A program made the translations under genes and the position numbers. This document shows, piece after piece, positions 27,801 through 43,096 of a stretch of 64,000 nt of DNA. Positions within the stretch are counted from its first letter, which is position 1; every line of letters begins with the position of its first letter. The stretch comes from Limnochordia bacterium. Lineage in GTDB: Bacteria; Bacillota; Limnochordia; DTU080. Location of the stretch: positions 96,001 to 160,000 of the forward strand of contig JBMNJG010000003.1 in NCBI GenBank assembly GCA_050951545.1, in the 5' to 3' direction. Below the pieces are notes generated by a model, which was not told where the DNA came from, did no database searches, and saw nothing but the letters and a program-made list of their open reading frames with translations.

Positions 27801-28417
27801 CACGCCACCCCCTCTGCATGGCGTTTGGCGACCCAATTGACGATGCCAAGCACCTCATATGCAGGAACAGGTGGCTCACATCGCATCCATGCCCACGCAA
27901 CCACCAATGCCGCCGTAACGTATGGGTCGACACCTCGGGCCAGTAGACTTCCGCTCAGAGATCGAATCGTCTTGTAACGGTCATCGCCCGTAGCTCCTAG
28001 AATGACATGCCGCCTCCAACCGTCAAGAGGGGAATGCAACTCCAGCGCTAGGGGAACAGGTTGCCGTCTTGGTTCATCGGGTTCACCCGCCGCTGTGATC
28101 GCCGCCGTGATAAGCTGCTCCAGCTCTTTATCGCCTAGAAGAAGGCCATGCTGTTGCTCTAGCTCAGTGAGAATTTCGCGCAAAATAGGCCGCGGTACGA
28201 AATACCGGGCCAGGCATTCAGCCACATGGATAAGGCGCTGCTTACCGTCCTTCCGGGCCGTCTCGCTAGAGCCGGTCTCCTCGCGCAGCAGGTCCATGAC
28301 TACCCGTTCAGCTACGGGTTCAGGTGCGCCGTTGTCGCAGCATGGCCGCGAATAAGCGCACATTCGCCTTCGCCTGTGGTAAACTGGTGGTGTGTCGCTG
28401 TCTCCACATGAAGGCAC
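27800..28417 (-). CDS. primase C-terminal (PriCT-like) domain protein
   Basis: GDDRYKTIRSLSGSLLARGVD...CEPPV...EV resembles PriCT-1; start uncertain. Confidence 0.6.
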   Translation of the reverse strand: MPSCGDSDTPPVYHRRRRMCAYSRPCCDNGAPEPVAERVVMDLLREETGSSETARKDGKQRLIHVAECLARYFVPRPILREILTELEQQHGLLLGDKELEQLITAAITAAGEPDEPRRQPVPLALELHSPLDGWRRHVILGATGDDRYKTIRSLSGSLLARGVDPYVTAALVVAWAWMRCEPPVPAYEVLGIVNWVAKRHAEGVA

Positions 28418-28477
28418 CTCCTGGCGCCACCGTTACCGCGGTGGCGCTCTGTCGTTGTTGTCGTTGTCAACAATGCA

Positions 28478-28690
28478 CTAACCATCACACTGCACCAACC
28501 CTCTGGCAGCCAACTCCACCAAGGCTTTCCTTGGGACTCGCCGGGAATTGCCGATCTTGACGTAAACCAACTCACCACTAGACATAAGCTGGTAAACCCT
28601 GGTCCGCCCAAACCCCAGCCACTCGCACGCCTCGTTCACCGTCATCAGTCCGTCTGACAAAAGAGCTTCCGTTCCTTTCTGCGCCTTCAT
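28478..28690 (-). CDS. excisionase-family helix-turn-helix protein
   Basis: LMTVNEACEWLGFGRTRVYQLMSSGEL..VKIGNSRRVP; AGGAGG RBS. Confidence 0.88.
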   Translation of the reverse strand: MKAQKGTEALLSDGLMTVNEACEWLGFGRTRVYQLMSSGELVYVKIGNSRRVPRKALVELAARGLVQCDG

Positions 28691-28818
28691 TATGGATAAC
28701 CCCCTCCTGTTACGTGTTGGTATGCGTTCACCATAACACACATGGACAAATTAGGCAACATGTGTTACTGTGTTTTTAGCGTAACGGCAACACCATTCAG
28801 CGATAGGAGAGGATTGCC

Positions 28819-29770
28819 ATGCCGAATGAACCTGTGTTCTTTGCCTGGAGTGTGCCTACGAGCGGCTACAAGTGGACCGACGCCAAGACGGTGGAAGGGA
28901 GAACCGGGCCGTTTTCTGATAGCACACCGGAATGTGACCGGAAAAGTCAAACGTTACCAGCCACTGCAACTGCACTCAGCGCTTTTTCGGTCGTTTGCGG
29001 ACATCACACCAGACAGAGGACGACATCCTGCTCATTTGCTAATGAGTACGGAAGGCTTACTGCACCGGGCGAGATGCTTATAGTGCCATCGGAAAGGAGC
29101 CCCAGAGAAGGCACCCTCGATGCCGGGGAACCGCTCTCGTTGTGGGTGTCTGAAATTGCTGATATGAACCAAGCGCTTACCTTGTGGGATATGGCGCAGG
29201 ACCGCGATGTTACTGGCCTTAGCGATTTCATTCACTGGTCAGGGAACAGTGTGCATTACGATAGTGGGCCAGGGCTAGAACGAACCACCAGGACCGTTGC
29301 ACACCTTGACGAGGAACCCCGCCTGAGTCGGTATTCTGCTGCATGGTGATCTTGTTACCCCCGCCCTCTTCCAGGTCCAACACGTTGTAAACCAGCACCT
29401 TGAAGGGCGACTATCGCCAAAGGTACTTTGGGACACAGACTATACGCACTTGAACCTGCACTTCATGCCGGAATCGCTCATAGGCGCCCTTTGGCTGCAG
29501 TTCGCCCAAGCCATTGACGGCAACAAGACTTACCGCCGTTGTGACGAATGCCGGGCATGGTTTGAGCTTTCGCCGGAGGTAGCGCGCACAACCAAACGCT
29601 TCTGCTCAAATGCCTGTAGGGTAAAGGCCTACCGCAACCGTAAAGCTACCGCCCGCCAACTCCATAGCAAAGGGGTTCGGATTGAAGAAATAGCTACCCG
29701 CCTTGACTCCGATCCTGAAACGGTTGCAGGTTGGGTATCCGACACTGAAGGTAACACAAAGGAGGAATGA
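28819..29770 (+). pseudogene. CGNR zinc-finger (ABATE-like) regulator with C-terminal HTH, multiply frameshifted
   Basis: Pieces in different frames: YQPL...ALFRSFADI, FANEYGRL, LIGALWLQFAQAI..RRCDEC...RFCSNACRVKAYRNRK. Confidence 0.7.
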
Positions 29771-29774
29771 CGGC

Positions 29775-30959
29775 ATGGCAGCCAAGAAGGGGCAAGGTTC
29801 TGTGAGATTCCGGGCTGACAAGGGCCTTTGGTGTGGCCAAGTCAGTCTAGGGTACCGCACAGACCAAGCGGAAAGCGCACGGTTCGTAAGACGTTTTACG
29901 GCAAGACTCAGCAGGAAGTACTCGATGCCATGGCGCGCCTGCAGGGCGACATTCTAGCAGGCAAGCCGATCCCCAACGACAGGCTTACCGTGAAGCAGCA
30001 CTTTGAAGACTGGTTGCGCTCCAAGAAAGCTGGCGTCGCCAGGAGCACCTATACGCAGTACGAAGGGCATGTTCAGACTCACATTATCCCTTCCTTGGGA
30101 CGTATCAAACTGAAGGACTTGGATTACCGCCGCATAAACGCCTTCTACGATGAGCTACACAACCGGGAAGACAAACTCGCCCCGCGCACCATCTACGACA
30201 TTGGCGCCATCCTACGCTCAGGACTTGAAGACGCAGTGCGCAAAGGGCTTGTACCCTCCAATCAAGGGAAACTGGCTGCAAAGCTCAGTAGGGGAGACAA
30301 GGAAGCTCGCTTTCTCAACCCCCAGGAGCTGGCCAGCTTCCTCGAAGCCTGCAAGGGCGAACGTCTAGAGAATGCATTCATTCTAGCCATCAATACCGGT
30401 ATGCGTCCCGGCGAATGGCTTGGCCTGTCGTGGGATGCCGTCGATCTGCAACAGGGAAAGCTCACTGTCAGGCAAGCGCTTCACGAAGTCTCGGGGAAGG
30501 TATATCTGGGCGACGTGAAAACGAAGGCCAGCAGGAGAACCATCTCTTTGCCGAAGGACGCCGTTCAAGCATTGCGCCGACAACGCAAGCATCAGACTCG
30601 AAGAGCAGCTTGCCTCTGGTGGCAGATGGGTCAATGAAGAGAACCTAGTCTTCACCGATACCCAAGGCGGTCTCCTACGCCGCACCAACGTATCTAAACG
30701 TGATATGAAGCGCATCGTCCGCCGTGCCGATCTCGAAGACGCAACACTGCACACCTTCCGCCATACTCACGCCAGCCTGCTGATCGCCGCAGGTGTCGAC
30801 ATCAAGACAATCTCCCGACGCCTGGGCCATGAGAATATCACGATCACGCTTCAGACCTACGGCCACTTGATGCCGGGCCAAGACGAACGGGCCGCCGACG
30901 TGATGGATACCATTCTCGCCGGGCTGCCATCTGTACCTCCCATGGCCTCCCGCCTCTAG
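29775..30959 (+). pseudogene. tyrosine integrase with two frameshifts (~29865, ~30596)
   Basis: KKGQGSV arm-binding N-terminus, TGMRPGE, VKT, HTFRHT, RLGH and TYGH catalytic motifs. Confidence 0.92.
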
Positions 30960-31010
30960 CTACCAAAACCTAATGGCAGTACAATGGCAGTACAGAAGCA
31001 ACAAATGCTG

Positions 31011-31037
31011 AAAGCCCTACCGCTTGGTAGGGCTTCT
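31011..31037. terminator. element-supplied terminator downstream of tRNA-Val
   Basis: AAGCCCTACC-GCTT-GGTAGGGCTT. Confidence 0.75.
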
Positions 31038-31050
31038 AGCTGCTGTTTTC

Positions 31051-31127
31051 TGGTGGGGAAGCACGGACTCGAACCGTGGACCTCCACGATGTCAACGTGG
31101 CGATCTAACCAACTGATCTACTTCCCC
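31051..31127 (-). tRNA. tRNA-Val(GAC), integration target
   Basis: Cloverleaf GGGGAAG...CCACG-TTGACAT-CGTGG...GTTCGAG...CTTCCCCACCA. Confidence 0.96.
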
Positions 31128-31161
31128 ACGTCTTTCCTCACATTACTGTGTTGGAGATATA

Positions 31162-31236
31162 TGGAGGCGGCACCCAGATTCGAACTGGGGAATAGAGGTT
31201 TTGCAGACCTCCGCCTTACCACTTGGCTATGCCGCC
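31162..31236 (-). tRNA. tRNA-Cys(GCA)
   Basis: GGCGGCA...GAGGT-CTGCAAA-ACCTC...TTCGAAT...TGCCGCCTCCA. Confidence 0.96.
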
Positions 31237-31258
31237 CAATAGCATCAGACGCATACAA

Positions 31259-31287
31259 AGTATATGTCAGGTACACAGCGGTGTCAA
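31259..31287 (-). promoter_or_regulatory. sigma-A promoter of tRNA-Cys/Val
   Basis: TTGACA-17 bp-TATACT. Confidence 0.8.
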
Positions 31288-31425
31288 GGCCCTCCCAGGA
31301 AATCGTGTTACGCTGATCGTGCATGTCGACGGCCAACCACACGCACTCACCTCAAAAGGAGGGTTTGGACAGGTTCCACTGGATCCATAGCGAATCAATC
31401 GCTTAATGCGAGGAGGTTTCAGAGG

Positions 31426-32298
31426 ATGAACCACTATAACACGCCAGCTGAGATCGGCGCGATGATGTTGACCACCAGTGAGAAGAAGGCCAACATGGCG
31501 CTTCGTGACCTCATAGTCCTAGGTATCTTGGCAGGTGCCTATGTAGCTATGGCCGGTAATCTGTCGACTGTCGTCACAGCTGATTTGGGCCAATACGTGG
31601 GAGCCGGACTAAGCAAGTTCCTTGCCGGAAGCGTCTTCTCCATGGGTCTGACCCTGGTCGTCATCGGAGGCGGCGAGCTTTTCACCGGAAATGCACTCAT
31701 GATCATAGGCCTGCTATCTAAGCGGATCACCGCAAGACAGCTTGTAAGAAACTGGATAGTGGTTTACCTCGCCAACTTCCTGGGATCACTCGTAGTCGCC
31801 GCACTAGTCTATCTTTCGGGACTCTGGAAGACCGAAGGAGGCTTAGTAGGTGCTAGATTCGCCTTAACTGCCCATGCCAAAGTAAGCCTACCTTTCGTAG
31901 CCGCCATGGTGCGAGGGGTCTTTGCGAATTGGCTGGTGTGTCTCGGCGTATGGCTCGCCATGGCCAGCCGGGATGTGGCTGGCAAGATCCTCGCCATCTA
32001 CTTCCCTGTGATGGCCTTTGTGGCCTGTGGTCACGAACACTCCATAGCAAACCAGTTCACGGTCCCCATGGGCATCGCTCTGAAGGGTCAGCCTGCCCTA
32101 CAGGAAGCCTTGGCAGGAGCGAATCTTGCGCAGCTGAATTGGGGTAGCTTTGTCATCCGTAACCTGGTACCCGTCACTCTGGGCAATATCATCGGTGGGG
32201 CGTGCTTTGTGGGTGCGCTCTACTGGTATGTCTATCTGGCACCAACTGGCGTTGAACAGTGCGTGGATACAACCAGGGTCCAAAAAGGCCGTCATTAA
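31426..32298 (+). CDS. formate/nitrite transporter (FNT) family protein; C-terminal tail derived from the IS
   Basis: GILAGAYVA, GGELFTGN, ANWLVCL, EHSIAN, VTLGNIIGG. Confidence 0.93.
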   Translation: MNHYNTPAEIGAMMLTTSEKKANMALRDLIVLGILAGAYVAMAGNLSTVVTADLGQYVGAGLSKFLAGSVFSMGLTLVVIGGGELFTGNALMIIGLLSKRITARQLVRNWIVVYLANFLGSLVVAALVYLSGLWKTEGGLVGARFALTAHAKVSLPFVAAMVRGVFANWLVCLGVWLAMASRDVAGKILAIYFPVMAFVACGHEHSIANQFTVPMGIALKGQPALQEALAGANLAQLNWGSFVIRNLVPVTLGNIIGGACFVGALYWYVYLAPTGVEQCVDTTRVQKGRH

Positions 32299-34209
32299 GC
32301 CATTTCCGGCACATGACGGCCACTTTTCGGTTGTAGCTACATTTTCTGGGTCTATGGCTGCGTTGGTGGCTTGATGTCTAGATAGCGCGGAGGGGCCTCT
32401 AGCTGCAGTTTTTGCAGGAAATCCTTTTGAACTTCACCGGGTTTGGTGGTTTGCCAGACCTCCCCACAATCCGTTGAATGGATGCCTACCTGCATGGTGT
32501 CAAAAGCCTTTTTCATCTGATGCCATGTGGCCTCCGTAGCATTTTCCGCCACGCGAATCAGCAGCAGTGAAAGCCAACATAGTAGAGCGTGAGCGCGGAT
32601 GCGTTCGTCCTTGCGATGGTAGACAGGACGGATGTCTACTACATGCTTCAGGTCGTCAAACACGCGCTCAATGTCCCAGAGCTGCTTGTAGCCCAGGACG
32701 ATGTCCTCAGCACTCAGCTTGTCGTCTGAGCTACTGACCAGGTATTTGCCGTCGAGCTGAGTCTCCTTGCGAATCTTCGCCTTGTCCAGGCTAAGCACGC
32801 CTGCTCGATTCTGCTGCAGATAGCGCCCGAAGGTGGGGTGCGAACGCAACTCGCACGCTCCCTTGGTGTGGGCTTCGCCCTCGAGCTGTTCTAGGGCCTC
32901 CAGGCAGCGTTCGATCTCGGCAACGATGTCGTCACGCTTCAAACGATCACGTTTGGCCTCCGTAGGATTACGTACGACTACGAAGCGTCTTTGGGCTGCA
33001 CCACCCTCATCAATCAGTACTTCCTTGATTTCGAGACCGTTGGCCAGTTTCTTGTACCTGCCGCGGCGGCTGAGGGCTTCCGCTGGCTCGGCGCCTGGTC
33101 CTAGGCACATTTTCTCACCAATGATGTAGTGACCGCCCGCGCCCTGTAAGACGCGCTGGTTGGCGGCCGAGTTGAACCCTGAGTCCATAACCATCACGAC
33201 CCGGCCCAGCTGCCAATCGTTCAGGTCCTTCTTTACTGCCTCGACTAGGTTCTGATCACAGCTATTGCCGGGGAAGGACCAGCATCTCACGGGTATGCCG
33301 CTACGAGTGATGGCGAAGGCGATGGTAACCTGCGCTAGGTCGTGCCGTTTCTGCTTGTTTCGACCGCGCTTACGCAGCCCTTCCCAAGTCGGCTCGCCAT
33401 CGTCGCCACAAATGTCGTCATCCGTATGCTCGATTTCGAAGTAGACGTTGGTCGTATCGACGAAGATCAGATCAACCTCGAGGTTGAAGAGGTTGACCAC
33501 CGAGAAGAACACGTCATGCTGAATCTTTTCATCGGCCTCGAGAAGGAAATCCATCGCCCGGTAAAGCTGATGAACCTCAACTTCATCAAGCCCTGAGATA
33601 TGTACCTTTTTGGCTACCCAGTGCTCGAGTCCAAGCTTACTGCATGGAGCCAACGCCCGATTCGCCACCATGGCGAAGATAAGCCGTTCGATCGGCGTAG
33701 CAGACTCTCGCTTACGCAGAAGAGTCTCGAGCACCTTTCGGATGCCCAAACGTTGCCACAGACCGTCTAGCAGCCATGTTCCGCCCAACTCCCTAGATCC
33801 CTTGAACTCAAAGGGCTGGACGTTGCCCGCTACTACCTGCGCTTCAGCGGCTTCATCCGGCTCCAGATATCTGGAGATGCTATTGACCAGACGTCGCAGA
33901 GCTTCCGTATCCAGGGCATCGGCCGGGCCAAGGTTATGAAGCACCTTGGTCTTTGAAACTCCCTTCACAGGGTCTCTATAGTTATGACAGAGTTGCACAT
34001 ACCGAAAGGTCTTGTGACTCTTTTTGACGGATACGGTTCGCATATACATTGTAACTATATTATACCACAGGTAAGCGATTAAGGGAAGGCCGAAAACAGA
34101 TAGGGTTGTAACTACGCGTTTTGCGGTTGTGGCCACACGTTCGCGCCCAAAAAACGCTATACTAGGCCATTTCGCATTTCGGTTGTGCCCCTCAACTGTT
34201 CAACGCCAG
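32246..34209 (-). mobile_element. IS1634-family insertion sequence
   Basis: Perfect 15-bp TIRs CTGGCGTTGAACAGT (32246-32260 / 34195-34209), extendable to an imperfect 29 bp; flanks ACCAA/ACCAG. Confidence 0.9.
32352..34049 (-). CDS. IS1634-family DDE transposase
   Basis: FVDTTNVYFE, VMDSG, YKQLWDIERVF, RPVYHRKDERIRAHALLCWL. Confidence 0.93.
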   Translation of the reverse strand: MYMRTVSVKKSHKTFRYVQLCHNYRDPVKGVSKTKVLHNLGPADALDTEALRRLVNSISRYLEPDEAAEAQVVAGNVQPFEFKGSRELGGTWLLDGLWQRLGIRKVLETLLRKRESATPIERLIFAMVANRALAPCSKLGLEHWVAKKVHISGLDEVEVHQLYRAMDFLLEADEKIQHDVFFSVVNLFNLEVDLIFVDTTNVYFEIEHTDDDICGDDGEPTWEGLRKRGRNKQKRHDLAQVTIAFAITRSGIPVRCWSFPGNSCDQNLVEAVKKDLNDWQLGRVVMVMDSGFNSAANQRVLQGAGGHYIIGEKMCLGPGAEPAEALSRRGRYKKLANGLEIKEVLIDEGGAAQRRFVVVRNPTEAKRDRLKRDDIVAEIERCLEALEQLEGEAHTKGACELRSHPTFGRYLQQNRAGVLSLDKAKIRKETQLDGKYLVSSSDDKLSAEDIVLGYKQLWDIERVFDDLKHVVDIRPVYHRKDERIRAHALLCWLSLLLIRVAENATEATWHQMKKAFDTMQVGIHSTDCGEVWQTTKPGEVQKDFLQKLQLEAPPRYLDIKPPTQP

Positions 34210-34273
34210 ACCAGAGAAGATGAGTCAAGCCGGATCTCCGCACGGCCAGTGATCGTACCAGCTTGTGATATGG

Positions 34274-34305
34274 AAGACGCCGACCTGCTTTCAGGTCGGC
34301 GTCTT
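34274..34305. terminator. bidirectional terminator between the original FNT end and tRNA-Gly
   Basis: AAGACGCCGACCTG-CTTT-CAGGTCGGCGTCTT. Confidence 0.85.
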
Positions 34306-34309
34306 CATT

Positions 34310-34385
34310 TGGAGCGGGCGACGAGATTCGAACTCGCGACCCCAACCTTGGCAAGGTTGTGCTCTACCAACTGAGCTACACCCGC
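34310..34385 (-). tRNA. tRNA-Gly(GCC)
   Basis: Cloverleaf, anticodon loop TTGCCAA, CCA end. Confidence 0.97.
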
Positions 34386-34388
34386 ATC

Positions 34389-34464
34389 TGGTGCCAAGGG
34401 CCAGAATCGAACTGGCGACACCGTGATTTTCAGTCACGTGCTCTACCAACTGAGCTACCTTGGC
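34389..34464 (-). tRNA. tRNA-Phe(GAA)
   Basis: Cloverleaf, anticodon loop CTGAAAA, CCA end. Confidence 0.97.
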
Positions 34465-34512
34465 TTACTAGCTTAAGTTTTAGGGTTGGGACCTTTGATA
34501 AGGCCCCAACCA

Positions 34513-34590
34513 TGGCGGAACCGACGGGACTCGAACCCGCGATCTCCGGCGTGACAGGCCGGCGTGTTAAACCAACTACACCACGGTTCC
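34513..34590 (-). tRNA. tRNA-Asp(GTC)
   Basis: Cloverleaf, anticodon loop CTGTCAC, CCA end. Confidence 0.96.
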
Positions 34591-34604
34591 CTTTGACATT
34601 TTGT

Positions 34605-34633
34605 ATCCTATCATGGTGCTTACTAGCTGTCAA
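34605..34633 (-). promoter_or_regulatory. sigma-A promoter of tRNA-Asp/Phe/Gly
   Basis: TTGACA-17 bp-TAGGAT with extended TG. Confidence 0.7.
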
Positions 34634-34705
34634 GCACTTCTCGGTGTAGACTACTCACCATCTGCACATGCCCCGCAAGACGCTTTATACCACTCTAGGA
34701 CCAGG

Positions 34706-34782
34706 TGGTGGACGCTGCGGGACTCGAACCTGCGGCCTCCGCCTTGTAAGGGCGGCGCTCTAACCAGCTGAGCTAAGCGTCC
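34706..34782 (-). tRNA. tRNA-Val(TAC)
   Basis: Cloverleaf, anticodon loop CTTACAA, CCA end. Confidence 0.96.
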
Positions 34783-34815
34783 ATGACCCAACCTAGTGTG
34801 CAAGGGGCAAGAATT

Positions 34816-34844
34816 ATTGTATCCAAGATTGCCGTCACTGTCAA
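34816..34844 (-). promoter_or_regulatory. sigma-A promoter of tRNA-Val(TAC)
   Basis: TTGACA-17 bp-TACAAT. Confidence 0.8.
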
Positions 34845-35451
34845 TCGTCTCTTCGCGAAGGGATACACACACACGTGAAATCGCGGCGAACACCCGTTCC
34901 TGATCATGCTGCCTCCCGCCTCTCCCAGAAATCGTCCCACTGTTCACCGTGGGAGTATGCTGCAACGTTTAGCATCTGCTGTGCCCTAAGTTGGCTCCAA
35001 CGCGATTGCTTGTGGCGCCTAACAACAACCTGCTTACAGGCGCTTTCTACGCATCCGCTGCCAATGGGGTAGCCAGCGGCCTCCAGCCTCGGATAAAGGG
35101 TTCATCTCCTCCTGCGAAAGTGCCTCTTGAGTGCGTGTCAACCCACGAGTAAATCTTACCGAAGACCGTATGGCTCACTCACCAAAGATCTAACCCAACG
35201 CTTGCCTAAGTCAGAGCAGGCATAGGCTCACGACTACTGCTACGGACTCTCTGGGATGCATCGGTGGCCTCGGCCACCGATGCACTTGGTGGGCCTTGGC
35301 CGATCAGTTGTTCAATCCTGTGGTGCATAGCCAGTGGGTTTGGCTCACGTTGTCGCTTCTGCACGATCGCCAGCGGCGGGTGGACGCGCACTAACATTGG
35401 CTGCACGGCTGATGTGAGCACTAATGAAACGGACGAGGTGACCCAGGGTGA

Positions 35452-36555
35452 TTACTCGTCTTGCGTTTCGTCAGATTGGCTGGCGGTTCCCCAGCCGCGC
35501 TCATCTATTCTTTGCTGGTATTCACCGCATCTACACTCGAGATAGTTGATGAGCTTCCGGTTGAAGTCCTGACCGCGCCGGAATGGCAGCCGCCTGTGAA
35601 TCTTGCGCTTGATGATCTTGCAGGACAGCTCGTGAGCCTGAATCACGATCAGCTTGATCTTCTTCTTAGCGCAGATCTGCTGTTTGGTCTGGTCACGGCA
35701 TTGCTGCTTATGGACCTGCTCAGCCGAATTCCGCTCCGTGACGCGGTAGTGTTGCGCCCCATTGAACTCCATGGCCGTATTGTGCAAGTAATAGAAGAGA
35801 TCGACCTCCAGACGCTTGCCAGTTGCTGGGTTCCTCATGAAACCTGGGCGCATTCCGTCGTCGAAGTCAAGGCAATCGACAAGCGCCAAGAAGATAGCCT
35901 GCATGAGAGCCTCTCCGAGGTGCGTAGCGCGGTGGAGCTCATCCTGCACGTCTAGTATTTCTTTGACATTTCGCTTATCAACCGGGTTGTGGAGAGTGAA
36001 GCGAATCGGTGCCCGCTTGTGCGCCTGCTCCATCTCCAGCCAACCATGCTTGGCCAACTGACGAGCCGCGTGTTTGATGGTCTGGGGGCTCAGACTCATC
36101 CGGCCGGCTAACTCAGCGTATGTGAACTGCCTTTTGCGAGGTGGGTCCGTAGGTTTGGACAGCAGTAGGGCATAAACCAATTTGGCCTGTGCATGGATTT
36201 CAGTAGCCATGACTAACTCCACAGGTACGGAGACCCTATCCGGGGATGGCTTCTGTGCCGCGGTCTGGCTAGGTCCCCGCCTAGCCGGTGGAGCAAACCA
36301 GCCCTCGGTGGTTAACTTGGCTGTCGCCCTGCGAACGGTAGGCCGGGACATACCCGTGCGCCGCCCCAGGCGGCTGGGCGAGAAAAGGAAACTTTCCTCC
36401 AGCTGATCATCCATCGTTAAGGCCATCCAAACGATCTTCTCGCTGGCTTTTAGCTCGCGAGTCAGTAGCAGTGAGAGCGGCACGTTCACCTCATCTACAT
36501 AGAGAGAGTACAAGGGCCTCACCTCACATAACGACCATGTGTTCGATTGATTCAA
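35452..36555 (-). CDS. uncharacterised protein: two winged-HTH domains + C-terminal PD-(D/E)XK/Vsr-like nuclease domain
   Basis: Two wHTH repeats (LGRRTGMSRPTVRRATAKLTTEGW; LAGRMSLSPQTIKHAARQLAKHGW), then LEVDLFY..AMEFNGAQHY...QQCRDQTKQQIC; start may be TTG 36513. Confidence 0.8.
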   Translation of the reverse strand: MNQSNTWSLCEVRPLYSLYVDEVNVPLSLLLTRELKASEKIVWMALTMDDQLEESFLFSPSRLGRRTGMSRPTVRRATAKLTTEGWFAPPARRGPSQTAAQKPSPDRVSVPVELVMATEIHAQAKLVYALLLSKPTDPPRKRQFTYAELAGRMSLSPQTIKHAARQLAKHGWLEMEQAHKRAPIRFTLHNPVDKRNVKEILDVQDELHRATHLGEALMQAIFLALVDCLDFDDGMRPGFMRNPATGKRLEVDLFYYLHNTAMEFNGAQHYRVTERNSAEQVHKQQCRDQTKQQICAKKKIKLIVIQAHELSCKIIKRKIHRRLPFRRGQDFNRKLINYLECRCGEYQQRIDERGWGTASQSDETQDE

Positions 36556-36677
36556 TGCTGAATTCTATGTGCGGCTCCAGAATCCTTCCACAGACAATAG
36601 TTCTTCGCTGACTGCGCGTGCATTGCCGACTAAGACCCGGTGGCCACTGGGAGTCGACAGCATTTCCCCCTCGGATC

Positions 36678-37655
36678 ATCGGCTGAGTGGGAAAAGGCTG
36701 TCGCCACCGTCCGGTTATGTACTGCCCAGTAGCCCCAGAAGGGCCGCCGAGACGAGAAAACGCGCTCTTGGCCGGGGAAATGAGCCCTTCGGGCGGTCAA
36801 GATGAGCAAAAAAGGCTTCGCGAAGACCGCATCGCTGCACTTTTACCACGTACATTGGGCCCGGGGGTTAATGAGGCGGCTCTTTTGCCATCGCGGTCGG
36901 ATCCTTGGCCCCCACTTCACGTACCAATCCGGGTAAATCCCGTCCGACTACCGAGCCAGTCTCGCGAGCGTGTGCATGGTGCATGGTATTCGTCCAGCCT
37001 TTTCGAAACACACCGACCGGGCTAACACTGAAGGGTCGGTCCACAGAGGGACCCGAGTGAGCCCGCCGTGATCGCGCACTGGGGAGCTGACCCCATCGGC
37101 TGAGTGGCAAAAGGCTATCGACACTGCCGGGTTATGTACCGCCCAGTAGCTCCACAAGGGCCACCAGGGCGGGAAAGCGCGCTCTTTTGGGGGGAAAAGA
37201 GCCCTTCAGCCGGTCAAAATGAGCAAAAAGGGCTTCGCGAAGACCGCATCGCTGCACTTTTACCACGTACATTGGGCCCGGGGGCTAATGAGGCGGCTCT
37301 TTTGCCATCACGGTCGGATCCTTGGTCGCTACTCGCATGCCAATGCGGACAAATCCCGTTCGGCGAGCGAGTCTCGCAAGCGTGTCCATGCGCCCATTCT
37401 TTTCGAAACACACCGACCGGGCTAACACTGAAGGGTCGGTCCGCAGAGGGACCCGAGTGAGCCCGCCGTGATCGCGCACTGGGGAGCTGACCCCAATCGG
37501 CTGAGTGGCAAAAGGTATCGACACTGTTCGGTTATGTACTGCCCAGTAGCCCCAGAAGCGAAATCAGGGCGGGAAAGCGTGCTCTTGGGCGGCGAAATGA
37601 GCCTGTCGGGCGATCAAAATGAGCCTGTCGGGCGATTCGCGAAGACCGCATCGCT
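36678..37655. repeat. ~410-bp tandem repeat, ~2.4 copies
   Basis: Units begin ATCGGCTGAGTGG at 36678, 37095 and 37496 (periods 417 and 401 bp). Confidence 0.95.
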
Positions 37656-37835
37656 AGGTTGTTACCACCAACCCAAGCGAACGCAGAGAGATTACCGCAG
37701 TTTTTTGCGTGGCCCCTTCGCGAAGAGCCAAAGGCTGCCGATGGTAACAACATGTTCCGGTCTGCTTCGTCGTGATCCGGAGCCATTCGGGGTACCGTAA
37801 TGGTAGAGCAACGAACTTTTTTCCGGAGGTCAACC

Positions 37836-38681
37836 ATGCGTAGCCTATGGAAAGGCGCAGTCAGTTTTGGCTTAGTGAACATCCCCGTACGCATGTATGC
37901 CGCTACTGAAGATAAGGATTTGAGCTTCAGTCAGCTACATCGAGAGTGTCATACCCCTATTCGCTACGCCAAGTTCTGTCCCACCTGCGAACGGGAAGTG
38001 CAGCAAGAGGAGATCATTCGAGGTTATGCATACGACAACCGGGGCTTCGTCGTCCTGGAAGAAGACGATTTCGCCTCTCTTCCTGTGCCAACGCTTAAGA
38101 CAGTGGAAATCCTAGATTTCATTGATCTGGTGGAGATCGACCCCATCTACTACCAACGAAGCTACTACCTCGAGCCCCTGGAAGGCGCGACAAAACCCTA
38201 TTCGCTTCTGCTGCGAGCCATGCAGGAGAGTAGTAAGGTAGCTCTCGGCAAGATCACCATCCGGACACGAGAATCCCTGTGCTGTCTGCGCGTCTACCGT
38301 GATCTCCTGTCTGTAGCTACCATGCACTACCCCGACGAAGTGCGTTCTATTGAACAACTGCAGCCTCTACAGACCCACCCCGAGGTAGCCGCGGGGGAGC
38401 TGCGCATGGCTCTGCAGCTCATCGAAAGCCTGACGACCCCGTTCGAACCGAGCAAGTATACAGATGGATATCGTAGCGCTCTGCTGGAGCTGATCCGGAC
38501 CAAAGCCGCTGGCCACCAGATACACGAGGCGCCGACGCCGACGCCGTTGGCGGGTGATGTCATGGATCTGATGGCGGCTCTTGAGGCAAGCCTTAGCGCG
38601 GTAGAAAAGGAAAAGGTAATGTCCAAGACCGAGGTGGCTAGCTCCGCCAAGTTGGCTACCGGTCGACGACGCAAGGGCTAG
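37836..38681 (+). CDS. ku: non-homologous end joining protein Ku
   Basis: MRSLWKGAVSFGLVNIPV, IDPIYYQRSYYLEP, DLMAALEASL. Confidence 0.97.
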   Translation: MRSLWKGAVSFGLVNIPVRMYAATEDKDLSFSQLHRECHTPIRYAKFCPTCEREVQQEEIIRGYAYDNRGFVVLEEDDFASLPVPTLKTVEILDFIDLVEIDPIYYQRSYYLEPLEGATKPYSLLLRAMQESSKVALGKITIRTRESLCCLRVYRDLLSVATMHYPDEVRSIEQLQPLQTHPEVAAGELRMALQLIESLTTPFEPSKYTDGYRSALLELIRTKAAGHQIHEAPTPTPLAGDVMDLMAALEASLSAVEKEKVMSKTEVASSAKLATGRRRKG

Positions 38682-38689
38682 AGCAAGCC

Positions 38690-39676
38690 ATGCCCCTCCC
38701 CCCGTTTATCCCTCCGATGCTCGCTACACCAGGTCCTCTGACTTACTCCAAGGAGTCTTTGTACGAGCCAAAGTGGGACGGCCTGCGTTGTCTAGCTTTC
38801 AAGGATAAGAGGCTTCGCCTCATGAGCCGTAACGGTCGGGACATGACCGCTCACTTCCCGGACCTGGCGGATCTGGCACATTGCCTTCACGGTGAACCCT
38901 GGGTCTTAGACGGAGAGCTTGTCATCTTTGACGACACCGGAAAAGCAAGCTTTGATCTGGTACGCGATCGCAATCTGACAGCTACCCCTACACGCATTAC
39001 TCATCTGGCGCAGCGCCATCCCGCAGTTCTTATTGTCTTCGATCTTCTCTACCACCGCGGGATTAGCCTGATGGACAAGATGCTGCGTGCCCGTCGCAGC
39101 TTGCTTGAGCAGCACCTAGAGCCGGGGCAACACGTGGCACTTTCACCTGCAGTGGTTGGCGCGGGGCCTGGTTTTCACCAAACAGTGGTACACCACGGAT
39201 GTGAGGGGACGATGATTAAGAGGTTAGAGAGTCCGTACGCGCCTGGATCGCGAAGCCCTTATTGGATCAAGGTCCGCAATGTCAAGGAAACCGACTGTGT
39301 GATCGGCGGCTTCGTACAAAGAGGCCCTCAGCAGCTGGCAAGTCTGCTACTCGGACAGCATCTGCTCCCTGCGAAGACACTGCACTACGTTGGCCGCGTG
39401 GGCGCGGGTTTCTCCGAGAACCAGAGCCAAACCCTTCTGAATTTTCTTTACCGCATCCTGACCCATGCGCCACCCTTCACGGCGATTGCCCCAAATCTAG
39501 CTCGCGGAGCCTCCTGGGTTCGACCCATAGTGGTCTGCCGTGTCGAGTACCTAACATGGACCGCCAAAGGCCTACTGCGCCATCCGGTCTTTCGCGGCAT
39601 CCGTACGGATAAGCCACCTCTTGAGTGCCTATTGGCGGCCGATCATCCGTCCAGCACAGGAGCCTCTTCCCTATGA
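38690..39676 (+). CDS. ligD: ATP-dependent DNA ligase (LigD ligase domain)
   Basis: YEPKWDGLR, LDGELV, EGTMIKR, YVGRVGAGF, LRHPVFRGIR. Confidence 0.92.
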   Translation: MPLPPFIPPMLATPGPLTYSKESLYEPKWDGLRCLAFKDKRLRLMSRNGRDMTAHFPDLADLAHCLHGEPWVLDGELVIFDDTGKASFDLVRDRNLTATPTRITHLAQRHPAVLIVFDLLYHRGISLMDKMLRARRSLLEQHLEPGQHVALSPAVVGAGPGFHQTVVHHGCEGTMIKRLESPYAPGSRSPYWIKVRNVKETDCVIGGFVQRGPQQLASLLLGQHLLPAKTLHYVGRVGAGFSENQSQTLLNFLYRILTHAPPFTAIAPNLARGASWVRPIVVCRVEYLTWTAKGLLRHPVFRGIRTDKPPLECLLAADHPSSTGASSL

Positions 39677-40575
39677 CCAGGTACCCCGTAAAAGTAGGTG
39701 AGCGGCATCTTGAGCTATCCAATCTTGACAAGGTACTGTGGCCAGACAAAGGCATCACCAAAGGTGATCTCATTCACTACTACGCCTCAGTGGCCGAAAG
39801 ACTTCTACCTCACCTCAGAAGACGCCCCCTTACCCTCACCCGCTATCCCGATGGGATCACGGGTGACATGTTCTACCAGAAGGACACACCCCTGCATGCC
39901 CCTGACTGGTTGCCGACATACGCCGTTGCTTCCTCAATCCCCGGGCGCATGGTGCGTTACCTCTTGGCCGAGGAAGCCGCAGCTCTTGTCTGGTTAGCCA
40001 ACCAAGCAACCATTGAGATTCACCCATGGATGTCAACCGTAGAGCATCCCGCCTATCCTGACTACGCAGTCATTGACCTCGACCCTGCCGAGGGTGCCAC
40101 GTGGGCTGATGTGGTAGAGATCGCCAGATTGGTGCGAGTTCTGCTTGAGAGGCTGGACCTTGTTGGATTCCCCAAGCTTTCGGGGGCTACAGGCATCCAC
40201 ATCTATGTCCCGCTAGCCGCTCGCTATAGCTTTGCGCAGACCAGCCAGTTTGTCGGTTTCCTAGGGAGACTCTTGGTCAAAGCCTATCCGGAAAAGGCGA
40301 CCAATGAACGTCTTGTCCAGTGTCGCAACGGGAGAGTGTATATCGATCACCTTCAGAATCTGCCTGGAAAGACCATCGTGGCACCATACGTGCCCAGACC
40401 CGTCGCTGGCGCCCCTGTCTCGGTCCCCGTCTCCTGGGCGGAGCTCGGCGAAGTGACACCTGAGCAGTTCAGTGTAGATCAACCCCAGCTTATCCTGAAA
40501 CGCCCCAAAGATCATGACGCCATGTATAGTCTCCAGCAAAGCCTCGATGCTGTACTTCCTTTGCTGAATCTGTGA
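39673..40575 (+). CDS. ligD: LigD polymerase (primase-polymerase) domain protein
   Basis: LSNLDKVLWP, RYPDGI..FYQKD, IDLDP, KLSGATGIHIYVP. Confidence 0.92.
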   Translation: MTRYPVKVGERHLELSNLDKVLWPDKGITKGDLIHYYASVAERLLPHLRRRPLTLTRYPDGITGDMFYQKDTPLHAPDWLPTYAVASSIPGRMVRYLLAEEAAALVWLANQATIEIHPWMSTVEHPAYPDYAVIDLDPAEGATWADVVEIARLVRVLLERLDLVGFPKLSGATGIHIYVPLAARYSFAQTSQFVGFLGRLLVKAYPEKATNERLVQCRNGRVYIDHLQNLPGKTIVAPYVPRPVAGAPVSVPVSWAELGEVTPEQFSVDQPQLILKRPKDHDAMYSLQQSLDAVLPLLNL

Positions 40576-40629
40576 CTGATCTGCTTTGCCAGCAGGAGAT
40601 CCACCGTCGCTTGACCTATTCTTCCTCAG

Positions 40630-40686
40630 GTACGCATGTCGACGGCCAACCACACGCGGAAATCGAGGCAACTGTGGCAGGTGTTC
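40630..40686 (+). repeat. 57-bp dispersed repeat, copy A (copy B 43222-43278; partial copy 31321-31344)
   Basis: 50/57 identity between A and B; 24 bp identical between A and the partial copy. Confidence 0.85.
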
Positions 40687-40716
40687 GCTGAATTAGCAAG
40701 GGGGTCCAATCGTCTC

Positions 40717-41157
40717 GTGCACAAGAGGGTTTCTATAGCTGTGACTCTTCTGGCGCTTCTCGCTGTGTGTACAGGTTGCCGTTCTAGCCATACAGGGAGC
40801 CATACTGTCAGATTCCGCGGATACGACGCCTACGTCTACCGTGGCGAATCGTCCGCACAGGCAGACTACATCCGTTTCCGTCAAGCGGATGGAGTTGAGG
40901 AGTTTGAAATCGTACTGCCCCGCCAACTCCCCCGTCTCGTGGTGGAGTTTCGAGCAGCAGTGAAGGCAGGAAAGATCGTCTTTAGGATCATCAACCCTGA
41001 AGGGAAGGCGATCATCGGGGGTTACACAGACTCGGAAGGTCACCTTAAGCTCTATCACTCTTTACGCGTCCCACCGGGCACCTATACCGTGAGGACTGAA
41101 TACCAGCAAGCCCGGCGGGGGGAAATCAGCTATACGCTCTATGGCTATCACCGATAG
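40717..41157 (+). CDS. hypothetical lipoprotein/secreted protein
   Basis: Basic-hydrophobic signal peptide ending in a lipobox-like VCTGC; start approximate. Confidence 0.6.
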   Translation: MHKRVSIAVTLLALLAVCTGCRSSHTGSHTVRFRGYDAYVYRGESSAQADYIRFRQADGVEEFEIVLPRQLPRLVVEFRAAVKAGKIVFRIINPEGKAIIGGYTDSEGHLKLYHSLRVPPGTYTVRTEYQQARRGEISYTLYGYHR

Positions 41158-41182
41158 CCGCCACTCCCTACGTTGCAGGCTA

Positions 41183-43096
41183 TTACTGCACCTGGTAGCG
41201 ATATACTGCATAGGAGAAGGGGTCTGGCAAGGAGAAGACCGCTTCTCCGTGTGTATCGACATGGATACTCCTTTGCACGCCCCTACCCAAAACGGGCTTG
41301 AGTATCACTTCACAATCGGCCAGTTCCCACAGTTGGAGGCGGTGAGAACTAGCCGGATGCAGCTCCCGATAAAGAACTAGGTAGCCAGAAGACACTGATG
41401 CCATGGACTGAAACCCGGTCCACCTAGTGCCGTTAGGCTCCTGGCCTATCGGAAGCACCGTTCCTTGAAGCAGCTCCTCTTGAAAAGAGCGATAGGTGCT
41501 TACCAACGCGCCTAACTCCAGCTGCTCTTGCGGATCCATGTCGGAAGGATGCATCCAGATCAGTGGGTTTGAGCACATCGTCACCGCAAAAGCATAGGCC
41601 TGGCCACAGACTGCGGGCGCCAATGGGTCATTGGCATACTTCTCCTGGTTGCGGAGCACGTTTGGCACTTCCATGAGAAGGTAGCGAGTAGGAAGAAACC
41701 GCGCCAGTGTCCATAGGTTACGCAGTACGCGATGTGGATGGTAGTTTGCCCAATCGGTATAGCGGTTTTCCAGGAAGTACGTGCCATAGTGAGCTCTGCC
41801 GAAGAAGCCCAGACGAGTGCCGTTTGTAATGTCCAGGTTGAATGCCACATTGCCACCTGATTCGGCAATCACTCGACGCAGCATGCATACTAGCCTCTCC
41901 TCGGCCAACTTGTTTGGAAGCTTCACATCATCGATTTTAAAATGAGTCACGCCCTCATTACGGTACAGGCCCAGCAGTATCTCTGCATCATCATTCCAGT
42001 ATGCATAATCGTCTTTCTTTGTAGGCACGAACCATAGTCCCAGCTTCATACCTAACGACGAAGCCAAATGCTTGATGGGCTGCAGACCTCGGGGGAAGCG
42101 AACAGGGTCAACCTCCCATGTGCCACGGCGGTACCAACCAGCATCGATCTGGTACACATTGACACCTAGACGCGCCGCATGAGGCAGGTCGTGCATGATA
42201 AACTCCTCATTTATCCGCGTGTCTTGCGTGCGATCTCCCCATGTGTTGCTCATGACGCAGATCTCTCGACTCGGCTCAAAGCAACGTACAGAGCGATGAT
42301 ACCTATGCAGAGCCTGCAGTGCACCAGCTTCACCGCCCTGGCTCACGCCAACGGCCACGCCATAGGAAGAAACAGGTTGGCCCGCTCTGCAATCACCTGC
42401 GGTAAGCCCGCTTCCACACACATGAACGGAAAAGGCGTTGATGGCAAAGTCGTGTCCAGGGTACGAGAGATGTCCCAGTGGTGTAGGTGCTTCCTTTACC
42501 ACGATCAGGCTATTGTGATCCAAAGAGTCCTCCATGAAGAGCAAGTTGCCCTGTGCAGTACGTGCTTCGCCGCTGTAGAGGAGTCCGTGTTCCTCTTTGA
42601 GCAGATTGTCCCAGTGATCCGTACGGTCGCGAAGCATGACACTGCGCCACTCGACATGGGTAGGCGCAAGCGCAAACCTGTCAAGAATGCCTGGGTCTGC
42701 CAGTGTAGCTAAGTCCGCAGCCACCGAGTCTGGCGCCGTTGCGCCGGGTCTGATCTCCCACGAGCTACGGATAAACGCTGCAGAAGGGTAAATACAGTGA
42801 ACCCAAACGACATCACCCCATGGATGGGCAAAGACGACTCTAATGCGTACGGCCTCTTCGCCTAACCCTAGGTCGTCGTCACGATCGATATCGACCTGGC
42901 CCGTGAACAAACCCTTCAGCGGATAGGGTTCTGCTTGCGTTACATTTAGCCATTGCTTACCGCTTATCTTGTCGATAATGTGTGTAGCCGCAGGCAACCC
43001 AGCCACAAAGGACCACTTGCGCTCGATGTACCCGTTGCCAATCGCTAAGGAATCCGTATCGCTCTGCACATAGCATGAACCCACATTTGTGTACAC
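41183..43096 (-). CDS. alpha-galactosidase-like glycoside hydrolase (GH36/clan D)
   Basis: SNTWGD, QIDAGW, RFPRGL, KLGLWF, FKIDD; AAGGAG RBS before GTG 43096. Confidence 0.85.
   Translation of the reverse strand: MYTNVGSCYVQSDTDSLAIGNGYIERKWSFVAGLPAATHIIDKISGKQWLNVTQAEPYPLKGLFTGQVDIDRDDDLGLGEEAVRIRVVFAHPWGDVVWVHCIYPSAAFIRSSWEIRPGATAPDSVAADLATLADPGILDRFALAPTHVEWRSVMLRDRTDHWDNLLKEEHGLLYSGEARTAQGNLLFMEDSLDHNSLIVVKEAPTPLGHLSYPGHDFAINAFSVHVCGSGLTAGDCRAGQPVSSYGVAVGVSQGGEAGALQALHRYHRSVRCFEPSREICVMSNTWGDRTQDTRINEEFIMHDLPHAARLGVNVYQIDAGWYRRGTWEVDPVRFPRGLQPIKHLASSLGMKLGLWFVPTKKDDYAYWNDDAEILLGLYRNEGVTHFKIDDVKLPNKLAEERLVCMLRRVIAESGGNVAFNLDITNGTRLGFFGRAHYGTYFLENRYTDWANYHPHRVLRNLWTLARFLPTRYLLMEVPNVLRNQEKYANDPLAPAVCGQAYAFAVTMCSNPLIWMHPSDMDPQEQLELGALVSTYRSFQEELLQGTVLPIGQEPNGTRWTGFQSMASVSSGYLVLYRELHPASSHRLQLWELADCEVILKPVLGRGVQRSIHVDTHGEAVFSLPDPFSYAVYRYQVQ

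Follow-up and report, generated by a model that had tools for sequence, protein, structure and literature searches.

A mobile element of 2,856 bp with a single gene was found at positions 34861-37716 of a 64,000-nt stretch of DNA from a Limnochordia bacterium (GenBank assembly GCA_050951545.1, contig JBMNJG010000003.1, positions 96,001 to 160,000), herein referred to as the window. Its mobile nature is shown by defined ends, 9-bp target-site duplications, and absence from the orthologous site in sister genomes. The gene encodes a protein with two winged helices (WH) followed by a predicted nuclease domain of the Vsr type, and this protein is outside all enzyme classes known to move bacterial insertion elements. 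The element is interpreted here as an autonomous, SOS-controlled transposon resembling insertion sequences (IS), with the WH-WH-Vsr protein as its mobility enzyme; the probability of this interpretation is estimated at about 0.6. No description of an element of this kind was found by full-text literature search. The original prediction, made from the nucleotide sequence, had described a stand-alone sequence-specific nuclease acting with adjacent long repeats. The stand-alone part of this description does not hold, since the gene sits in a bounded element with 9-bp target duplications.

Ends, copies, and empty sites of the element

Homology between the copies of the element in its own genome starts sharply at window position 34870 and ends at 37716 (Table 1), and no other open reading frame (ORF) is conserved between the element ends. 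Target-site duplications were counted in the 8 copies with both ends identifiable. Perfect duplications (9/9) were found in 5 of these copies, each with a different sequence, and a duplication of 8/9 was found in one more; the chance of one 9/9 match is about 4e-6. The left end (Lend) and the right end (Rend) appear to form an imperfect inverted repeat with 13 matches in 24 anchored positions, a value reached by a fraction of 0.003 of random 24-mers. In a genome search, extended matches to Lend and Rend were confined to these elements, and no other gene type was found between such ends.

The insertion site is empty in two genomes of the same genus, G001 and G002. The flanks outside the duplication are contiguous there, with 72-112 nt from the tRNA-Val gene to ku. 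A second insertion, C4:114374-118428, is likewise empty in both genomes (two loci were tested in all). No homologue of the protein was found at E<=1e-5 in these two assemblies, both of which are fragmented (280 and 380 contigs).

The element's own genome (3.64 Mb, 16 contigs, 93.9% complete) yielded 34 tblastn matches of the protein, fragments included. In total, about 28 genes were found, 15 of them belonging to subfamily A and about 13 to three diverged subfamilies. Subfamily A is represented by 15 loci with 94-100% identity (13 intact, 2 frameshifted), subfamily B by 4 genes with about 55% protein identity to A, and subfamilies C1 and C2 by 2 and 7 genes, respectively, with 46-50% identity. 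The most abundant multi-copy ORFs of at least 250 amino acids (aa) in this genome, counted at >=80% identity, were those of A (15 copies), C2 (6 copies), and B (4 copies), and no other ORF family of this size exceeded 4 copies. The coding sequences (CDS) of the 15 subfamily-A copies have 98.3% nucleotide identity, with variable sites distributed over the codon positions as 18/7/43. For the 13 intact copies (78 pairs), dN was 0.0085 and dS 0.049, a ratio of 0.17. As judged from these substitution patterns, the subfamily-A gene is under purifying selection.

The selfish element envisaged in the original prediction is thus borne out by a bounded multi-copy element with 9-bp duplications at unrelated loci and with empty sites. 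The paralogue count that it had proposed, taken together with the other genomes, revealed a multi-copy, non-syntenic family absent from same-genus genomes, rather than single-copy syntenic housekeeping genes.

Lend and Rend are common to subfamilies A and B despite the 55% protein identity and differing tandem arrays. The Lend sequence GGGTGCACACGnGAAATCGCGG was found again in subfamilies B and C1, and the Rend sequence ACCGCnGTnTTTTGCGTGGnCCC was found again in subfamily B. Additionally, the left-end module is present at 11 further sites of the genome downstream of the gene, 10 of them with 95-98% identity and one, of subfamily B, with 70%. For the subfamily-B copy at C7, a possible 7/9 duplication was judged by eye; exact ends and duplications of the C2 elements could not be set. 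Elements of subfamily A have the order Lend, gene (reversed), array, and Rend, and those of subfamily B the order Lend, gene (forward), an array of about 270-nt period, and Rend. Because the gene flips between A and B while the array stays by Rend, the position of the array is tied to one end of the element rather than to the promoter. In C2, an array of 94-nt period is located downstream of the gene, and its unit motif occurs once more at the other end of the element.

Elements of subfamily A have a mosaic left part, of which at least four variants were seen, and the variable middle segment is replaced by different segments in other copies. One of the variants holds an internal junction in which a Rend-like end, a 17-nt spacer, and a second-type Lend are arranged head to tail. 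This junction was found inside two elements (G000:C7:457695-457725 and G000:C16:2079-2109), and the elements holding it are flanked by one 9-bp duplication. It could be the remnant of an old tandem insertion or circle junction. A deletion derivative, G000:C14:234-360, joins Lend and the following 32 nt to the gene interior (window joint 34901->36105). As contigs of three RNA libraries (X15-X17) show this joint too, the derivative is present, and perhaps transcribed, in other samples.

Homologues of the protein are widespread and unannotated. A search of representative proteins gave 1572 matches at E<=1e-3 and 149 clusters (50% identity) at E<=1e-30. With few exceptions the homologues have 320-360 aa and align over the full length, and all are named 'hypothetical' or 'MarR family regulator'. 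The family was found in 13 of 40 related genomes, with up to 17 matches per genome, and at E<=1e-25 in 15 of 300 other genomes of the phylum, with 7 candidates scored per genome. In total, 110 loci were confirmed in metagenome-assembled genomes (MAGs) titled Limnochordia, Symbiobacteriaceae, Thermaerobacter, Fermentithermobacillaceae, and other Bacillota. The distribution is patchy. Some family-bearing contigs (L110, L114, L134, and L065) come from MAGs titled Mycobacterium leprae, Bacteroidota, Ignavibacteriales, and Actinomycetales; they look mis-binned because the range is otherwise restricted to Bacillota. No homologue was found in a plasmid collection of 72,556 records, and a phage collection gave matches to the nuclease domain only. 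Metagenomes of bioreactors, sludge, and landfill sequenced in many studies contain DNA near-identical to the element.

Table 1. Features of the element and of its protein (window positions, or residues of the 353-aa protein where marked aa)
Feature	Position	Strand	Details
Target-site duplication, left copy	34852..34860	.	TTCGCGAAG, 9 bp, identical to 37717-37725
Lend (left end)	34861..34890	+	GGATACACACACACGTGAAATCGCGG; exceeds canonical GGGTGCACACGTGAAATCGCGG by 4 nt
Left-end module, non-coding	34870..35134	+	Repeated across the genome
Variable middle segment	35135..35364	.	Common to only 3 other copies: C4:114379, C5:129034, C12:188951
CDS	35452..36513	-	353 aa + stop; TTG start at 36513
LexA (Cheo-type) box, predicted	36532..36545	-	CGAACACATGGTCG; 18 nt upstream of TTG start
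Tandem unit 1	36677..37095	+	419 nt
Tandem unit 2	37094..37495	+	402 nt; 85% identical to unit 1
Terminal partial unit	37496..37668	+	Unit positions 1-173
Rend (right end)	37669..37716	+	..ATTACCGCAGTTTTTTGCGTGGCCCC; conserved at 11 further array ends
Target-site duplication, right copy	37717..37725	.	TTCGCGAAG
WH1	aa 8-92
WH2	aa 93-176
Vsr/EDxHD-like nuclease domain	aa ~196-338

The encoded protein and its predicted fold

The ORF at 35452-36555 on the minus strand was confirmed as an open frame of 367 aa. The TTG at 36513, preceded by the Shine-Dalgarno sequence GAGGTGAGG, is taken as the true start because a TGA interrupts codon 7 of the longer frame in 9 of the 15 subfamily-A paralogues. 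The database homologue P0001 has 353 aa, the same length as the CDS from this TTG.

Two winged helix-turn-helix (wHTH) stretches were found by Pfam at aa ~55-90 and ~119-180, with matches to HTH_36 (4.7e-9) and to HTH_Crp_2, MarR, GntR-, and IclR-type models; a DnaD_N match was below the threshold. Both wHTH repeats of the original prediction were thus recovered, and the AlphaFold2 (AF2) model agrees (mean predicted local distance difference test, pLDDT, 92.4; predicted template-modelling score, pTM, 0.87). Their resemblance to replication initiators was likewise upheld. Residues 4-177 superpose on the iteron-bound pi initiator (2nra_C; Z 8.4, 166 aligned; VIA-align, used for all Z values given here), the whole model is matched by RepE54 (1rep_C; Foldseek probability 1.0, E 0.018, 223 columns), and the N-terminal part matches replication-initiator PHROGs at about 1e-7. 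Pfam gave no match to Rep_3 in the protein. Foldseek with the whole model retrieved wHTH proteins and Rep initiators only.

The C-terminal third is not covered by any Pfam or NCBIfam model. For the Vsr/DUF559-like nuclease proposed in the original prediction, the Pfam DUF559 and Vsr models gave no match at E<=1, either with the whole protein or with 21 C-terminal domains of the family, so the nuclease assignment rests on PHROG matches and on the fold, both of which favour it. A weak match to DUF2726 was found in 11 of the 21 C-terminal domains (best E 1.8e-4). Residues 212-332 match PHROG families named homing, HNH, or intron-encoded endonuclease, at 1e-11 to 6e-6. In the structural comparison, residues 196-334 of the model aligned with Vsr (1cw0_A; Z 8.2, root-mean-square deviation (rmsd) 3.4, 107 aligned), with the homing endonuclease I-Bth0305I (3r3p_B; Z 8.0, rmsd 2.9, 93 of 98 residues, 18% identity), and with 3hrl_A (Z 7.5). 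Foldseek with a model of the nuclease domain only (pLDDT 84.4), run as the original prediction had suggested, placed this Vsr-like fold at probabilities of 0.92 (3r3p) and 0.95 (Vsr), with E-values of 0.17-0.2; TnsA (1f1z_A, probability 0.44) and the R2 RLE domain (9dou_A, 0.28) were lower among the neighbours.

The C-terminal motif quoted in the original prediction, ..MRPGFMRNPATGKRLEVDLFYYLHNTAMEFNGAQHY..QQCRDQTKQQIC, is present letter for letter and represents the conserved core of the protein family. In an 89-row alignment, D238, E249, G252, Q254, H255, Q270, R273, D274, and K277 (353-aa numbering) are near-invariant; a 21-row alignment of the nuclease domain agrees, with N251 also invariant or nearly so. 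The invariant D238, N251, H255, and D274, together with the common E201, are candidates for the EDxHD active-site residues and follow the expected order. Only the WH-WH and Vsr-like nuclease parts were seen by Pfam, NCBIfam, and PHROG scans and by fold, and none of these gave an RNase-H/DDE, HUH, serine, tyrosine, or DEDD transposase domain.

Regulation, tandem arrays, and neighboring genes

A box of the type CGAACN4GTTCG, with at most one mismatch, was found just upstream of the start in 27 of the 28 paralogues (A, 15/15; B, 4/4; C, 8/9 genes), and the host lexA gene itself has a perfect box, CGAACTTTTGTTCG, upstream. For relatives from other genomes, a LexA box was found at 12 of 46 loci, versus 5 of 1058 control windows. 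On the strength of these boxes, the gene is probably SOS-controlled. Positions 35440-36394 are covered by contigs from four metatranscriptome libraries, which are available as contigs only and may include DNA carry-over. No RNA-library contig covers the array or positions 34942-35397, which for contigs alone is no evidence of silence.

The long repeats mentioned in the original prediction are a direct array at 36677-37668, with two full units and one partial unit of about 400-417 nt. In the own genome, the ~408-nt unit has 85 blastn matches. Arrays of 1.4 to 6.4 units were found about 120 nt upstream of the gene, in the opposite orientation, in 15 of 15 subfamily-A genes, in agreement with the functional link between gene and repeats that had been proposed. 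Most complete arrays end in a partial unit of positions 1-173. The 54 full-length units in 20 arrays have 77-99.5% mutual identity (mean 87%) and are conserved along the whole length, with no positional orthology of units between arrays. Each unit contains phased sub-repeats of 21-22 nt, GGGCGG(G/T)nAAA.., which are about 100-fold as dense there as in the genome on average. Neither the left-end module nor Rend is similar to the unit, with scores equal to those of shuffled sequences.

The array period differs by subfamily, being 408 nt in A, ~270 nt in B, and 94 nt in C2. For 80 loci of relatives in public MAGs, a tandem repeat with a period of 40-700 nt was found within 2.5 kb of the gene at 22, compared with 16 of 150 windows drawn at random from the own genome, with the elements left in. 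Arrays are therefore frequent in the family and not universal. The expectation that long tandem repeats consistently precede homologues thus holds for every subfamily-A gene, but 58 of the 80 relatives' loci have no detectable array.

Four tRNA genes at 34310-34782 form the tRNA cluster noted in the original prediction. Their operon has a near-consensus sigma-70 promoter at 34816-34844 on the minus strand (TTGACA-17-TACAAT, 11/12), 8 nt from the insertion site. For 5 of the 28 elements of the genome, a tRNA gene is no more than 3 kb away, compared with 5% of random positions. The original prediction had also stated that there is no adjacent transposase. An ORF of the DDE_Tnp_1 type (32352-34136, minus strand, 594 aa) does lie 1.3 kb away, between a formate/nitrite transporter gene and the tRNA cluster, but outside the element; it is single-copy, without a second copy in the genome, and its ends are unrelated to those of the element. 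On the other side, at 37800-40575, a set of genes for non-homologous end joining (NHEJ) encodes Ku, an ATP-dependent ligase, and a LigD primase-polymerase in separate, slightly overlapping ORFs. This set starts 75 nt from the right duplication, possibly by coincidence; end joining is a host function that the mechanism proposed below would need. Elsewhere in the window, a tyrosine-recombinase (phage integrase) gene at 29828-30959 is split into two ORFs of different frames (29828-30637 and 30705-30959) and adjoins tRNA-Val and tRNA-Cys (31051-31236). It probably represents an integrase that has decayed at a tRNA attachment site.

Proposed mechanism, alternative explanations, and known systems

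The WH-WH-Vsr protein is proposed as the mobility enzyme because it is encoded by the sole gene of the element, because this gene is kept intact under selection in three independently amplifying subfamilies, because A and B, unlike the distant C2, have their ends in common, and because no conventional transposase with matching ends was found. In the proposed mechanism, DNA damage would remove LexA and allow the protein to be made. The two Rep/pi-like winged helices would bind repeated sites of the element, which may be its conserved ends or the phased sub-repeats of 21-22 nt in the array units next to the right end. The Vsr/EDxHD-type domain would cut or nick the element ends and nick the target twice at a distance of 9 bp. 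The joints would then be finished, and the 9-nt gaps filled, by polymerase and ligase of the host or by end joining, giving the duplication. Acting at the level of DNA, the array would be a platform on which several protomers are loaded at one end, rather than an RNA gene. As to the chemistry, we infer end cleavage, a 9-bp staggered cut of the target, and host fill-in and ligation.

A broader claim is put forward tentatively, at slightly less than even odds: the element would represent a further catalytic class of prokaryotic transposase, in which a Rep-like winged-helix pair joined to a Vsr/EDxHD nicking nuclease mobilizes an element bounded by terminal inverted repeats and free of DDE, HUH, serine, tyrosine, and DEDD enzymes, with a 9-bp stagger, SOS control, joining by the host, and the array as a multi-site loading platform.

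Several observations weigh against the protein as mobility enzyme. Its catalysis is a prediction from models, the Foldseek E-values of the nuclease fold are poor, and searches of PDB sequences with the protein, with the 89-row profile, and with the 21-row nuclease profile reached no nuclease. A hydrolytic nuclease of the Vsr type is not known to have strand-transfer or joining activity, and for this reason the joining step would fall to the host. The inverted repeat of Lend and Rend is weak, 2 of the 8 copies have no duplication, and neither the Lend nor the Rend motif turned up next to the 10 diverged copies inspected in genome G009. Finally, the CDS is 98.3% identical between copies, with its dS of 0.049, whereas identity is only 86-87% in the non-coding parts (the upstream spacer, the 90 nt that follow the stop codon, and the array units). 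Simple recent copying of whole elements does not account for this gap, which may come from gene conversion acting on the CDS, from reassorted non-coding modules, or from rapid array turnover.

Because no joining activity is known for a lone hydrolytic nuclease, the main alternative is a non-autonomous element moved in trans by a conventional (e.g., DDE) transposase, with the nuclease involved in maintenance or regulation. In one variant, the nuclease would cut empty or damaged sites and repair would copy the element back, as was proposed for TnpB in IS200/605. Duplications of 9 bp are typical of DDE transposition and fit this explanation, DDE-type ORFs are present in the genome (for example, the one at 32352-34136 and several families in sets of three copies), and a trans-acting transposase could sit in the part missing from a genome that is 94% complete. 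However, the candidate helpers have at most 3-4 copies, compared with about 28 elements, and no other gene type shares the extended ends. The intact gene is under purifying selection in each of three diverged subfamilies, and both ends and arrays differ between C2 and A/B, as expected if the element's own protein recognizes them. On balance, movement in trans is considered unlikely.

An integrated mini-replicon is less probable still. Here, the protein would be a Rep-like initiator, the tandem units would be iterons forming an origin, and the nuclease would nick for replication or for integration and excision of a circle. The alignment of the N-terminal part with iteron-bound pi and with RepE54, the initiator PHROG matches, the phased sub-repeats of each unit, and the internal head-to-tail junction in two copies all agree with such an origin. 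Yet the plasmid collection gave no homologue, the Rep_3 model has no match, the array period changes with each subfamily, and most loci of relatives have no detectable array; in addition, 9-bp duplications at random sites favour transposition over site-specific integration.

A classical free-standing homing endonuclease gene, copied by homologous repair into a cut cognate empty allele with the repeats as passengers, is very improbable, although the nuclease domain has its closest counterpart in I-Bth0305I, an EDxHD homing endonuclease, and has the PHROG matches given above. The loci occupied by the copies are unrelated, their 9-bp duplications differ, and their ends are sharp and shared, none of which homing yields, and the location is not an intron, an intein, or a phage, with domain-level matches only in the phage collection. 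Homing in this sense was one of the options of the original prediction.

The remaining options, an RNA-associated nuclease or a defence module in which the repeats would be tandem structured-RNA genes guiding the nuclease or processed by it, have similarly little in their favour beyond the whole-length conservation of the ~408-nt units, hairpin-like motifs in them, and their divergent position about 160 nt from the gene. Rfam at E<=0.1 gave only tRNAs over window positions 28000-42000, RNAalifold gave weak values for both strands (-58 and -54 kcal over 410 columns), two covarying pairs were found on either strand versus 0-3 in shifted controls, and the B and C2 arrays are unrelated and located downstream of the gene. 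PADLOC matches were marginal and partial (E 1e-3 to 8e-3), mostly to the wHTH part. The units also showed no 3-periodicity and have lengths of 381-435 nt that are not multiples of 3; thus, neither coding nor RNA structure is supported for the repeats.

If the autonomous transposon interpretation is correct, a hydrolytic nuclease of the repair or homing type, together with host repair, can drive bacterial transposition, and homing endonucleases and transposons are linked in a way different from TnpB/IscB systems. The family is sizeable and entirely unannotated. As the dominant repeat in its own genome, the element shapes genome structure as well as MAG assembly in Limnochordia, Symbiobacteriaceae, and related Bacillota of digester and bioreactor origin. 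With its modular winged helices, a sequence-reading nuclease of this compact size may find practical use as well.

Among known systems, insertion sequences of the IS4/IS1 type have DDE transposases and 9-bp duplications. The element resembles them in its size class of 2-4 kb, single gene, apparent imperfect inversion of the termini, 9-bp duplications, and multi-copy amplification with gene-less derivatives. It differs in the long tandem array at one end and in a protein without any of the transposase domains listed above. TnsA of Tn7 and the RLE domain of R2 retrotransposons belong, like the nuclease domain, to the PD-(D/E)XK superfamily and are among its Foldseek neighbours. They show that nucleases of this superfamily can cut element ends or targets in transposition; in contrast to the element, both act with a second catalytic partner (TnsB and reverse transcriptase, respectively), and the element encodes none.

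The initiators pi (R6K) and RepE (mini-F) share with the protein two consecutive winged helices, which superpose on the pi-iteron complex, and direct repeats beside the gene. Plasmid iterons are about 20 bp long, whereas the units here have 94-408 nt. Other differences are the additional C-terminal nuclease, the chromosomal location, and the lack of a Rep_3 profile match and of plasmid relatives. The Vsr repair endonuclease and DUF559-type proteins share the fold (1cw0_A and 3hrl_A) without a match of the corresponding Pfam models, and the gene described here is not a single-copy repair gene. The nicking chemistry of Vsr leaves a 3'-OH.

EDxHD enzymes combine a Vsr-like catalytic domain with N-terminal NUMOD motifs and are encoded in introns or inteins (PMC3239194). 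Their prototype, I-Bth0305I (PDB 3R3P; PMC3239194), resembles the protein in the fold of the catalytic domain, probably in the order of conserved acidic, Asn, and His residues, and in the modular arrangement, where the nuclease is preceded on its N-terminal side by DNA-binding modules that read the sequence; both are products of selfish genes. The protein has no sequence-level match to 3R3P. In place of the NUMOD motifs it carries two Rep/MarR-like winged helices, and in place of a group I intron or intein its gene is carried by a bounded, multi-copy chromosomal element with 9-bp duplications.

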